Below are positions 18,425 to 53,929 of a DNA stretch of 64,000 bases, one piece after another. Within the stretch, counting starts at the first letter, position 1, and every line of letters starts with the position of its first letter. Both the position numbers and the translations under genes were made by a program. The notes under the pieces were generated by a model. It did not search any database, was not told where the DNA came from, and saw nothing but the letters and a program-made list of their open reading frames with translations. Source of the stretch: a virus. Taxonomy: Duplodnaviria > Heunggongvirae > Uroviricota > Caudoviricetes. Location of the stretch: IMG/VR virus record IMGVR_UViG_2565956708_000007, one strand, 5' to 3'.

Positions 18425-18441
18425 ATTGCTCTAATAAAAAA
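18425..18441 (+). promoter_or_regulatory. C1 operator-like site, left member of a divergent pair
   Basis: ATTGCTCTAATAAAAAA, 14/17. Confidence 0.55.
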
Positions 18442-18465
18442 CGTGATGAGTGTACATCACGTTTT
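18436..18465 (-). terminator. Palindromic hairpin with flanking T/A runs, likely bidirectional intrinsic terminator
   Basis: AACGTGATG-agtgta-CATCACGTT, followed by T6 on minus strand and T4 on plus strand. Confidence 0.5.
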
Positions 18466-18473
18466 AAAAATAT

Positions 18474-18490
18474 GGAATTATTAGAGCAAT
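18474..18490 (-). promoter_or_regulatory. C1 operator-like site, right member of a divergent pair
   Basis: plus strand GGAATTATTAGAGCAAT, 14/17. Confidence 0.55.
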
Positions 18491-32518: not shown

Positions 32519-32546
32519 ATTACACTAATAAATTTATTAGAGCAAT
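32519..32546 (-). promoter_or_regulatory. Two overlapping, oppositely oriented C1 operator-like sites with embedded promoter for the tRNA-ban operon
   Basis: ATTACACTAATAAATTT (15/17) overlapping AAATTTATTAGAGCAAT (17/17 reverse complement); -35 TTGCTC and -10 TAATAT on minus strand. Confidence 0.75.
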
Positions 32547-48653: not shown

Positions 48654-49280
48654 GTGCCTGTACTGTTAAAGGGGGACTCTAAAATGGCTGTGATTCCAAT
48701 GTCGTACTCCCCGGGTACTGTCGCTCGTCGATTTTCGATCCTGGACGGAGTTACCATCCAAGGTGTGCTTTACCAGGTTATATGGGATTCCAAAACCCCA
48801 TTTGCAGCTGTAATAGAGGCTGCGCCTTCTATTATCGATGGTGATATGCGCCATAAGGTTGTCGCTACTCTTGAACTTCAACGTCGCCCGCAGCTTGAAG
48901 GCGTACTGGTAAGGAAGTTCTGGGAGGATAGCGATGTTGCCCAGATTGAAGGTATCGTGGTTGATGGAACCGTCCGGGATGTCGGTTTAGCTACTTTTGT
49001 TTACGAAACCGTAGCCTCAAAAGCTGGTGTTGTTTTGCTCAGTGATAATGAGCAATACGAAGGTGGAAAAGCTCTTTGGCAACACATCGCCCGTCGCTCT
49101 TCCGAGCTAAAAGTGTTTATCCTTGACACCGATGCCGCTCAGTATTACCCGTTTGACGGCGAACGTGTTTGCTATGACGGGGTAAGTATTCCTGAATCCG
49201 AGATATGGAGTGAACACCCAGATCGAAGTAAGCATGGGGTTGTTCTGGTCGCTGAATCCATAATTGGAAATGCGGCATAG
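48654..49280 (+). CDS. Hypothetical protein (208 aa; likely start MAVIPMS)
   Basis: ORF. Confidence 0.45.
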   Translation: MPVLLKGDSKMAVIPMSYSPGTVARRFSILDGVTIQGVLYQVIWDSKTPFAAVIEAAPSIIDGDMRHKVVATLELQRRPQLEGVLVRKFWEDSDVAQIEGIVVDGTVRDVGLATFVYETVASKAGVVLLSDNEQYEGGKALWQHIARRSSELKVFILDTDAAQYYPFDGERVCYDGVSIPESEIWSEHPDRSKHGVVLVAESIIGNAA

Positions 49281-49462
49281 CAGTAAAAAATTCCTTGCTC
49301 CTTAAAAGGGGAGAGGGTTAATCTACGTATGCTAAGCATAGATATGGCCTCAGATTAATGTTAAGCGTCTTGCAGGACGCGTAATGTTATCTGGGGCTTT
49401 CTTCTATCTGCTTTTCGGGTAATGCCTGAAGCAGATAGCCTCAAGCACCCGCAACGATTGTA

Positions 49463-51598: not shown

Positions 51599-52636
51599 TT
51601 AACCTATTGCTACTGGTTTTAACAAACCAGCATCAAGTAGCTTGCGAGTTAACCACTGCTGGCCTTTACCCGTTAATTGGGGCGTCAGCCGTATCTGGTA
51701 GCCATTTTCATCATCCAGCACCACTTCTTTCACCGTGAAATACCCGGCGTTGATGTACTGTTGGCGCGGTACGTTTTTGCGCGCTCCAAAAGCCATGAGA
51801 ATGCCATTCTGGCGCAACCATGAGAAAAGGGCGTTTTGCTTAAGTCCAACGACCTTTGCAAAGTTCCCGATCAGGATTCCATTAGCCACTGATACCCGGT
51901 CGGCAAAATCGACTTTAGGGGCTGCGGCCACCAGCTGTTGTTCCAGCTGCATTTTCTGTTCTGCCAACTCGGCAGCCAGGCGTAGAGCTTCTGGTAATGT
52001 TTGGGGGATCGATGGGGCAGGGGAGTTTGCCTGCTGCAATTCTTCCAGTTTGTCGATCAGCGAACGGCGGACCGCTTTTGACTCGCGCGCGGCGACTCGC
52101 AGGGCTTGTTTGAAAGTCATGGTTATGACAAGCATTGATGTTTTGTTCATTTTTTCCACTACACTTTTTGTGTAGTGCTCACCATCAAGCTCATCGAGTA
52201 TTTTTTCGATGAATTTGTTGTTCCGAACCTCTGGTTCCCCACATAACTTACGCGCTTCATTGACCATCTTTAACAGTGTCAGGCTGTCGATTGTGTCTCC
52301 GGTGTTGGAGATAACATTCACTGCTGGTGATGGAGTAGCTGAAGCAACAGGTGCTGGTTTTTCAACATTCAAATTATTACCGGTCATTCTGCGCGCCTCC
52401 TTTCTCATTTCTGCTGCCACTGTTGCGTAACGTAGACGTCCTTGTTCAATCAAATAATCCCTGATCTCGGCTATCAGTAGCCTGTTGATCACAGCCTTAT
52501 CTGTTCGGGTATAAAAACGTCTGGTTATCATGAAATAGTTGGCAATTGCGCCGGGGATCTCCCGTGTCGGCATACAGGTTGTATGCAAAGCGATCGCTTC
52601 GGCTATTTCATTACGGGTGACGAGAGGTGTTTTCAT
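51599..52636 (-). CDS. ant1: Antirepressor Ant
   Basis: 345 aa, translationally coupled to icd; C-terminal ANT domain shared with KilA. Confidence 0.8.
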   Translation of the reverse strand: MKTPLVTRNEIAEAIALHTTCMPTREIPGAIANYFMITRRFYTRTDKAVINRLLIAEIRDYLIEQGRLRYATVAAEMRKEARRMTGNNLNVEKPAPVASATPSPAVNVISNTGDTIDSLTLLKMVNEARKLCGEPEVRNNKFIEKILDELDGEHYTKSVVEKMNKTSMLVITMTFKQALRVAARESKAVRRSLIDKLEELQQANSPAPSIPQTLPEALRLAAELAEQKMQLEQQLVAAAPKVDFADRVSVANGILIGNFAKVVGLKQNALFSWLRQNGILMAFGARKNVPRQQYINAGYFTVKEVVLDDENGYQIRLTPQLTGKGQQWLTRKLLDAGLLKPVAIG

Positions 52637-52854
52637 AAACCCCCCTGAACGTTGGCAGAGAAGGGGAGGCTCCAGTAACTAAGTGAATTGCGCGAGTCAG
52701 TTGAAAAACGGGCAGTAAAAATGCAGGGGCCATCAGGCAATTGAGAGCGTGCTTCGTCTTCAGTTGCTGCGATAACGAAGTGATAGTGGTGTTTTTTACA
52801 GGAATAGAAACGCCAGATGAATTCTGGGCGTGCGCAAGGATTGGCATTAACCAT
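52633..52854 (-). CDS. icd: Icd, cell-division inhibitor (73 aa)
   Basis: 73-aa ORF overlapping ant start; position between c4 region and ant. Confidence 0.75.
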   Translation of the reverse strand: MVNANPCARPEFIWRFYSCKKHHYHFVIAATEDEARSQLPDGPCIFTARFSTDSRNSLSYWSLPFSANVQGGL

Positions 52855-53009
52855 AGTTACGGCCTCACAATCAGGTTTAACAACCTGCTACCCGCTGCTA
52901 AACAGGTGGCAGGACGTGACGGGGTTAGCAGACTGGCGATTGTGAAACCAGCAGGCCGAAGCCTCCCCATCACGCCCCACCATAATTTGGGCGTAACGCG
53001 GTTTTACGG

Positions 53010-53120
53010 ACACAAAAATACCGCAATATCGGATATCTGCGGCTGTCCGCACAATCATTCAGGCTGCTAAACCCGGTCGCAGAATTTGCTACGACGGCGG
53101 AACTATAAGCCTGAACGATT
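53010..53120 (-). ncRNA. c4: c4 antisense repressor RNA region (boundaries approximate) with 3' terminator-like hairpin
   Basis: between operator 53169-53185 and icd; contains GGGUUUAGCAGCC complementary to a downstream leader element UCUGCUAACCCC and CGGCCU complementary to the icd RBS AGGCCG; hairpin plus U-run at 53010-53041. Confidence 0.45.
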
Positions 53121-53168
53121 AAAAGGTCAATATGATGCGAAAAGATAGCATTCGCGACTTAAAAATAC

Positions 53169-53185
53169 AAATCTATTAGAGCATT
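53169..53185 (-). promoter_or_regulatory. C1 operator-like site for the c4-icd-ant operon
   Basis: plus strand AAATCTATTAGAGCATT, 15/17. Confidence 0.7.
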
Positions 53186-53281
53186 ATCTGATTAGTAAAT
53201 GCACAACTGGATCTAATAACCTCTTTTTTTTAAAGGCGAAAATATGTACCCTAAATGAGTTATAAGGCAGGTGAGGTTATA

Positions 53282-53929
53282 ATGAGAAAACTATTACTAC
53301 CGTTATTATTTATGGCTGGGACTGTTAATGCAGCATCAAGCGTAAAGGAGATTTGTACCGATTATACGAAATACCTTGGGCACGTTTACGGCTTTGCTGT
53401 CAGTCAAGACGAATCCATGCGCAAGAAGTTACTGTCAGATATGAAACGCCTTAAACTTTCTGAAGCGATGGTGCAGCAAGAACTGTATAAAGTCGCAACC
53501 AACGAAAATGCTAAATATCAATATTCTCGCCTGTTAAATCCCGACGCAAACGAGATCAATCGAAGCTCTTTCGATTATATGGTAAAGGCATGCGAAACCG
53601 CTCCTGATTTTGCTATTCCTAGCTGGGGTGTGCTGGTGGCGAGCAATGCCGTTAATAAAGAAGACGTTGGAAGAAATGGCATTGATTCAATCAGAAACTC
53701 ACCGGGAATGCGCCATCAAAACGTTCAGGGTACGCTTGAAGAACGGGCCAGGGGGCCGGGTACAAACTCCCCAATGGGAAACCTCTCCCCGGAGGAATTG
53801 CAAGAGTATAACCAACGGATGGAGCAGTATGAGAAAGCTGCACGCGAAAAAATGGAACAACAAAAAAACGGATCTCTTAATACTTTCCAGCAAGGTTTAA
53901 AAGCGCTTAATTTACCCTATGAATGGTGA
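53282..53929 (+). CDS. Secreted protein with signal peptide, Sim-like (putative superinfection exclusion)
   Basis: signal peptide MRKLLLPLLFMAGTVNAAS; about 215 aa; shares GMR...VQGTLEERARG motif with Sit. Confidence 0.5.
   Translation: MRKLLLPLLFMAGTVNAASSVKEICTDYTKYLGHVYGFAVSQDESMRKKLLSDMKRLKLSEAMVQQELYKVATNENAKYQYSRLLNPDANEINRSSFDYMVKACETAPDFAIPSWGVLVASNAVNKEDVGRNGIDSIRNSPGMRHQNVQGTLEERARGPGTNSPMGNLSPEELQEYNQRMEQYEKAAREKMEQQKNGSLNTFQQGLKALNLPYEW

Follow-up and report, generated by a model that had tools for sequence, protein, structure and literature searches.

A P7-type immI control region in a P1-family phage-plasmid, with a possible IsrK-type unit upstream of its c4 RNA

The immI operon and its relatives

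The window, by which we mean the whole stretch of 64,000 nucleotides analysed here, carries on its minus strand an operon whose parts follow one another as in the phages P1 and P7. It contains two overlapping genes. The first is icd (52633-52854, minus strand, with its ATG at 52852-52854), which encodes 73 amino acids and whose product is 95% identical to Icd of P7. Its stop codon overlaps the start codon of the second gene in the tetranucleotide ATGA. This second gene, ant1 (51599-52636, minus strand), encodes an antirepressor of 345 amino acids, which is recognized by the Pfam ANT/KilAC domain (PF03374, E = 1.3e-30) and is called Ant1 in homologous records. Downstream of ant1 lies kilA, with KilA-N and ANT domains, followed by a reading frame of the size of repL, which gave no Pfam match and is assigned as repL from its size and position only. 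Just beyond this frame, Rfam finds a sok antitoxin RNA (49276-49450, minus strand; 94.7 bits against 59), which suggests that a hok/sok-type toxin-antitoxin cassette adjoins the lytic replicon. P1-family genomes carry tRNA genes, and Rfam detects three of them in the window, all on the minus strand (29637-29709, 31713-31785 and 31791-31863). On the other side of the operon, a divergent gene on the plus strand (53255-53929) encodes a protein of 224 amino acids with a signal-peptide-like N-terminus and a sub-threshold Pfam match only; this position is occupied by simA/simB in P1 and by a lipoprotein gene in P7.

How is this operon controlled? At its head lies the operator Op51, also called Oc4, of the C1 repressor (AATGCTCTAATAGATTT, 53169-53185, minus strand), which occupies the same alignment columns as the 'monovalent C1-controlled operator Oc4' in the P1 record AF234172 and agrees with the C1 operator consensus at 15 of 17 positions. 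A preliminary description of this region had placed the operator at exactly these bases. When the 64-kb window was scanned with the P1 C1-operator consensus, up to 3 mismatches being allowed, 12 operator-like sites appeared against 0.34 expected from shuffled sequences. Sites of this kind are paired on opposite strands at two places, where they overlap (32519-32546) or are closely spaced (18425-18490), and these pairs look like bivalent operators. Position 13 of Op51 (53173 in the window) is G, which is A in P1, P7 and nearly all relatives; among about 96 related operators, G was found in two, namely that of the window and that of one relative (L022). This A13G change might weaken binding of C1 at the promoter P51a. 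In 28 of the 124 related sites tallied (L007, for example), the 110 nt that precede the a1b1 hairpin described below contain no C1 operator core, and the c4 operon of these 28 may be controlled differently.

Two promoters follow on the minus strand. P51a (P2c4; 53142-53171), whose -35 element (about 53165-53171) overlaps the operator and whose -10 element is TATCTT (53142-53147), is assigned as a putative promoter by its positional homology to P2c4 of P1. P51b (P1c4; 53102-53130), located downstream of the operator and homologous to P1c4 of P1, consists of TTGACC, a 17-nt spacer and TATAGT, and is predicted to be a strong sigma-70-type promoter: 10 of its 12 positions match, it was the sole sigma-70-like site in a scan of 52600-53300, and its hexamers are the same in 76 of the 124 sites tallied. 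Transcription from P51b is predicted to start near 53095.

Relatives of the region are abundant. By BLAST against phage records, Escherichia phage vB_EcoM-Ro157c2YLVW is 99.8% identical, P7 and RCS47 are 98.3-98.8% identical over the part that begins at the operator, and P1 is 95.2% identical. The surrounding 19 kb share 97-98.5% identity with phages of the P1 family. Among the plasmids of PLSDB, 578 match 52850-53110, 189 of them at 99% identity or more. The immI region of P7 (AF503408: Op(c4), c4, icd, ant1/2) has the same order of parts and is base-for-base the same from P51b through the start of icd, all six recognition elements included (a' and b' in c4, and a1, b1, a2 and b2 outside it). 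Between 53183 and 52830, 354 bases in total, only two mismatches to P7 are found, both upstream of P51b: one is the operator change mentioned above, the other lies between operator and promoter. The DNA upstream of the operator is P1-like, not P7-like. P1 itself (AF234172: Oc4/Op51, P51a, P51b, a1, b1, c4, a2, b2, icd, ant) shares the architecture at 93.5% identity, and every immI feature annotated in P1 maps cleanly onto the window in a three-way alignment of P1, P7 and the window. In this alignment, the window differs from P1 in a1, b1, b', a', a2 and b2 and at a few scattered positions. The P1 alleles are UUGACAG for a and GUUAGUG for b, whereas those of the window are UUAGCAG and GAUUGUG, and c4 has changed correspondingly.

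The difference in these alleles is the known basis of P1/P7 heteroimmunity (PMC6906374). Since both alleles of the window equal those of P7, homoimmunity at immI is expected with P7, and heteroimmunity with P1. We hold with high confidence that the minus strand of 52855-53185 forms the control segment at the front of an immI operon (c4-icd-ant1/2), that this operon belongs to a P1-family phage-plasmid, and that its c4 recognition elements are of the P7 allele. The same architecture of C1 operator, c4 region and icd-ant had been seen in the preliminary description, and it is borne out by Rfam matches to the C4 and c4-a1b1 families as well as by the mapping of the P1 and P7 annotations. An immI switch with the P7 allele is already known and belongs to a textbook phage immunity system. 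As the region is the same as that of P7 and of hundreds of sequenced P1-like plasmids, its identification adds no new biology. The practical value is one of annotation: the boundaries of c4 and the six recognition elements are fixed, and immunity of the P7 type is predicted.

The c4 RNA and its recognition elements

Where in this region is c4 encoded? Alignment to the misc_RNA features c4 of P1 (AF234172) and P7 (AF503408) puts the mature antisense RNA, 77 nt long and with a tRNA-like fold, at 52905-52981 on the minus strand, and Rfam finds C4 (RF01695) at 52902-52987 on the same strand with 69.6 bits against a gathering score of 45. The fold has a minimum free energy of -44.9 kcal/mol (z = -5.7), and its unpaired internal segments are two and nothing else: a 9-nt loop that bears b' and a 7-nt joint that is a'. 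The element b' (UCACAAUC, 52938-52945, minus strand) belongs to the loop of the second internal hairpin, and a' (CUGCUAA, 52925-52931, minus strand) is the single-stranded joint, lying within UCUGCUAACCCC (52921-52932). Downstream of c4 and on the same strand come their targets as annotated in P1. The target of a' is a2 (UUAGCAG, 52895-52901), and b' pairs with b2 (GAUUGUGA, 52865-52872), which abuts and overlaps GAGG, the Shine-Dalgarno sequence of icd (52863-52866). Within the window itself, a' and b' can form 15 of 15 base pairs with a2 and b2. A prediction of the duplex between whole c4 and the leader returned full-length duplexes only, the method ignoring intramolecular structure.

A second set of sites lies upstream of c4, again on the minus strand. 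Here Rfam recognizes the c4-a1b1 motif (RF03163, 53056-53108) with 55.5 bits, the gathering score being 46.7 (E = 2.7e-11). It folds into a first hairpin (53076-53095) and a second one (53060-53075) with a1 in its loop; GGGTTTAGCAGCC lies at 53062-53074. Through alignment with the P1 annotation, a1 (UUAGCAG, 53064-53070) is complementary to a', and b1 (GAUUGUG, 53050-53056; annotated as 53049-53056) to b'.

The preliminary description had divided the roles in a different manner. According to it, c4 would be a short RNA lying between the operator and a terminator-like hairpin at 53011-53042, and would act through GGGUUUAGCAGCC and CGGCCU on UCUGCUAACCCC and the ribosome-binding site of icd. A hairpin followed by a U-run could indeed end a short RNA there, and the complementarity of the two segments is real. 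All the sequence elements invoked are also present on the minus strand, with offsets of one base at most: GGGTTTAGCAGCC exists, at 53062-53074 instead of 53063-53075, and the hairpin with its U-run is both real and conserved, at 53011-53042 instead of 53010-53041. Nevertheless, Rfam and the experimentally based annotations of P1 and P7 put c4 downstream of the hairpin, at 52905-52981, so the alignment to P1 and P7 c4 that had been named as a check moved c4 away from the place proposed. It follows from this position that UCUGCUAACCCC, taken before as a target in the leader, carries a' of c4 itself, and that GGGUUUAGCAGCC, taken before as the antisense element, carries a1, the target upstream of c4. 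It is also 52905-52981 that has the strongly stable tRNA-like fold, the upstream segment matches the target family c4-a1b1, and CGGCCU, which does occur in the minus-strand RNA (52953-52958), is missing from the upstream RNA and sits inside c4. A c4 extending from the operator to the hairpin is thus hardly tenable. What was observed has been confirmed and its interpretation is partly supported, with the roles of the parts swapped; the b element, that is b' UCACAAUC with b2 GAUUGUGA, had been missed.

CGGCCU deserves a few more words. It makes up the loop and the 3' arm of a UUCG-capped hairpin of c4, and both this hexamer and its complement AGGCCG (52860-52865) are invariant in 52 of 52 distinct sequences. 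This 6-nt match is outside the annotated a/b pairing and is not counted into the mechanism.

The pairing of c4 with its two sets of sites can be judged from relatives. IMG/VR was searched with a 21-mer, loci being seeded on the first a1b1 hairpin, and more than 120 loci were obtained; the comparative set of 122 immI regions consists of IMG/VR P1-family loci, the window and reference phages, and contains 52 distinct sequences. The preliminary description had proposed an antisense RNA that pairs with sites at the icd ribosome-binding site, and this part of it holds for a' and b' against a2 and b2: over 15 pairs and 52 distinct sequences, all of the 780 cells (100%) are standard-paired. Double changes are seen in eight pairs and one-sided changes in none, so that the compensatory-mutation check foreseen at the outset shows the paired elements to be conserved and compensated. 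Sliding the partners by 1-3 columns lowers the paired fraction to 27-49%. By element, a2 keeps 7 of 7 pairs in the 52 sequences, and b2 keeps 8 of 8, of which 6 have changed on both sides.

The upstream sites behave in the same way. Between a1/b1 and a'/b', 14 pairs are kept in every sequence and the same 8 pairs are compensated: a1 keeps 7 of 7 pairs with a' throughout the 52 sequences, and 2 of these show double changes; b1 keeps 7 pairs with b', again in all 52, and 6 of these show double changes, the eighth position annotated for b1 being C.U in every sequence. As a1 and b1 co-vary with a' and b' just as strictly as a2 and b2 do, this pairing is under selection. The complementarity also exceeds chance by far: TTAGCAG-N(5-35)-GATTGTG, taken as a composite motif, is present three times in the 64 kb where 0.00 copies are expected, and the three copies are a1-b1 and a2-b2 in the sense direction and a'/b' inverted within c4.

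Among the IMG/VR P1-family loci (L006-L125, aligned to 52830-53120 of the window), the a element has two alleles, UUAGCAG and UUGACAG, and the b element has six, namely GAUUGUG, GUUAGUG, ACUUACG, ACGAAUG, GUACAUG and ACUUGUG. Eleven of the 12 possible combinations are seen, and the P7-type combination of the window is the commonest one (34 of 122 loci). Whatever the combination, the alleles always match three ways: site 1 equals site 2, and both equal the complement of c4. This suggests that the a and b elements reassort, creating many immunity types beyond those of P1 and P7.

The hairpin ahead of c4 and the isrK family

What is the hairpin that lies between b1 and c4? On the minus strand, CCGCAGAUAUCCGAUAUUGCGG (CCGCA...UGCGG) followed by UAUUUUUGUG forms a terminator-like structure at 53011-53042, whose fold has -8.9 kcal/mol and a z-score of -2.0. 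It is not annotated in the P1 or P7 records. A simple consensus scan for terminators did not flag it either, because its loop exceeds the scanner's limit. The base of its stem is invariant in the 52 distinct sequences, with no compensatory changes. Just before the hairpin, GGACA (53043-53048) can pair with UGUCC after the U-run (53008-53013) to make a longer stem enclosing the terminator; this pairing is conserved, likewise without compensatory changes.

An answer may come from the Rfam family isrK (RF01394). With permissive thresholds, it matches 53014-53095 with 43.7 bits, which is below the gathering score of 50 (E = 5.6e-8); among relatives, P1 scores 35.1 and D6 46.5. The full-length isrK model, two hairpins plus a terminator, is aligned to 53014-53095 so that the hairpin falls on the terminator of the model, and position 1 of the model coincides with the start predicted from the -10 hexamer of P51b (about 53095). 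The window thus has the architecture of the IsrK type, in which a C4-type RNA and an antirepressor gene directly follow two 5' hairpins and a terminator-like hairpin.

This arrangement is found elsewhere as well. The lambdoid phages mEp460 and Stx2a_WGPS2 have an isrK match of 67 bits with C4 (83.6 bits) 24 nt behind it; in mEp460, GUGGAAA and UCACCAAAG of isrK are complementary to a' and b' of C4 and recur just before a downstream GAGG-N-AUG. As to the annotation of these phages, a 383-aa CDS of mEp460 (NC_019716 gp41, 477-1628 of locus L126) spans the matches to isrK (837-913) and C4 (938-1025), as does gp13 of Stx2a_WGPS2 (L127); gp41 is annotated as 'transcriptional regulator', and a note adds that it resembles a putative antirepressor. 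Probably, the AUG after the b2-like site and GAGG is the likelier start, and the annotated N-terminus is spurious.

A scan of species-representative genomes with the isrK/a1b1 hairpin pattern gave 32 loci; they belong to Kluyvera, Vibrio, Pseudomonas, Endozoicomonas, Yersinia, Dickeya and others, and Salmonella is not among them. A C4 gene lies 8-77 nt downstream in all 32, isrK is above its cut-off in 30, and a' is complementary to sites on either side of C4 in 32 of 32. Thus isrK and c4-a1b1 are two families for one and the same unit, of which the terminator is a conserved part, and we infer that the hairpin and a1/b1 form one conserved unit homologous to the IsrK small RNA. In four enterobacterial loci (L128, L134, L141 and L157), an EFASI RNA (RF02957, 107-115 bits) is located at a distance of 1.3-2.3 kb from isrK and C4.

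Could the hairpin with its U-run have no function of its own and be kept merely through the high similarity of P1-family immI regions? The columns of the alignment are on average 93% identical, no variation is seen in the stem, and the fold z-score of only -2.0 would fit such a structure. On the other side, a terminator hairpin with a U-run ends the unit at the same place in 28 of the 32 isrK-C4 loci, which are far more distant (those of Vibrio, Pseudomonas, Endozoicomonas, Yersinia and others), and the terminator belongs to the isrK covariance model itself. We regard a functionless hairpin as quite improbable.

If it has a function, what is it? In Gifsy-1 of Salmonella, the short IsrK ends at a partly read-through terminator, read-through gives a long mRNA, and the short IsrK acts in trans to switch on translation of the antirepressor operon that lies downstream (PMC4825925). 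By analogy, an IsrK-type RNA of about 82 nt might sequester a' and b' of c4, either in trans or, in the read-through transcript, in cis, and so relieve the repression of icd and ant; this activity would add to the main model of immI. That a1/b1 compete with a2/b2 for c4 is an older proposal of the original c4 work, recorded in the supplement of Weinberg et al. 2010 (PMC2864571). In favor of it are the covariation of a1/b1 with a'/b', as strict as that of the downstream sites, the match of the unit to isrK from the predicted P51b start, the activation in trans by Gifsy-1 IsrK, and the loops of mEp460 isrK, whose complements of a' and b' are repeated before a downstream ribosome-binding site. 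It is to be noted, however, that the P1 and P7 records contain no short RNA at this place and that none was found in the literature searched. The isrK score is below the Rfam threshold and the hairpin is weak; moreover, both promoters are upstream of a1/b1, and no regulation of the ratio of decoy to c4 is evident. Such a decoy against c4 seems to us quite possible, though short of probable.

Another function would be attenuation as in phage P4, where pairing of c4 with nascent a1/b1 would alter termination at 53011-53042. This would autoregulate c4 and tighten the shut-off of icd and ant. IsrK is a structural homologue of SeqA of P4, and the CI RNA pairs upstream and downstream of itself to cause premature termination (PMC4825925); in the window, a1/b1 lie immediately 5' of the hairpin, and the spacing between b1 and the hairpin is conserved. 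Against this stand the observation that constitutive STnc1160 did not lower the effect of IsrK (PMC4825925), the lack of covariation for an alternative structure between b1 and the terminator stem, and the known mechanism of P1, which acts at the icd ribosome-binding site. A c4-responsive attenuator is therefore a weaker alternative than the decoy, and on the whole unlikely.

The predicted switch and known two-RNA systems

How might these parts work together? In P1 and P7, c4 is processed by RNase P, and expression of ant depends on translation of icd. The arrangement of the parts in 52855-53185, their sequences and folds and their covariation were established above; the mechanism is drawn entirely from homology to these two phages. 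C1 at Op51 would shut off P51a, and P51b would supply the c4 precursor, as known from the work on P1 and P7. The transcript would contain, in order, the a1/b1 hairpins, the weak terminator-like hairpin, c4, a2 and b2, icd and ant1. From this precursor, c4 would be cut out, its 5' end being made by RNase P, and would accumulate in the lysogen. Its a' and b' would then pair with a2 and b2 so that translation of icd is blocked, and the antirepressor would stay off because expression of ant depends on translation of icd. Descriptions of this mechanism are given in PMC8198154 and in the supplement of PMC2864571.

A fraction of the transcripts probably ends at the hairpin, giving an RNA of about 82 nt (from around 53095 to 53012-53014) that carries a1 and b1. 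Since an IsrK-type unit stands directly upstream of the C4 gene in 32 loci of other species, a short RNA with a1/b1 is plausible here, but this RNA would not be c4. Our proposal, which we put forward tentatively, is that a1/b1 are more than a passive copy of the target sites and constitute, with the hairpin, an IsrK-type small RNA, freed by partial termination, which titrates c4 to switch on the antirepressor.

Why does this matter? Recognition of a1/b1 plus the hairpin as a conserved IsrK-type unit ahead of the C4 gene weighs more than the re-identification of immI, and it gives the a1/b1 sites a concrete and testable role. It also joins two literatures, between which no mutual citation was found in the literature searched: PMC4825925 compares IsrK with SeqA and CI of P4, and P1 c4 is not mentioned there. 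Only two points go beyond the annotated record, namely the connection of IsrK with a1b1 and the combinatorial nature of the a/b alleles, and both concern the family, not the window in particular. If the proposal is true, IsrK/STnc1160 of Gifsy-1 and a1b1/c4 of P1 would be the same two-RNA module, and the nearly free assortment of two a and six b alleles would generate many specificities of immunity.

Gifsy-1 is the first system to be compared. There, the locus of IsrK (RF01394) and STnc1160 has, next to its promoter, an RNA that forms two hairpins and a leaky intrinsic terminator, and this RNA precedes both a stable RNA made by processing and an operon for an antirepressor; by analogy, we infer that STnc1160 would be the equivalent of C4. 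In comparison with isrK, the window has a longer terminator loop, a weaker U-run and a score below threshold. The second comparison is with the CI RNA of P4, flanked by seqA and seqC, and the CA RNA of N15, each of which is a processed small RNA between two copies of its own target sites. The CI RNA controls the anti-immunity genes of P4 (PMC4825925), and the CA RNA is cited in PMC10732415. The mechanism described for P4 and N15 is premature termination of transcription, whereas P1 and P7 act by a translational block at the ribosome-binding site of icd.
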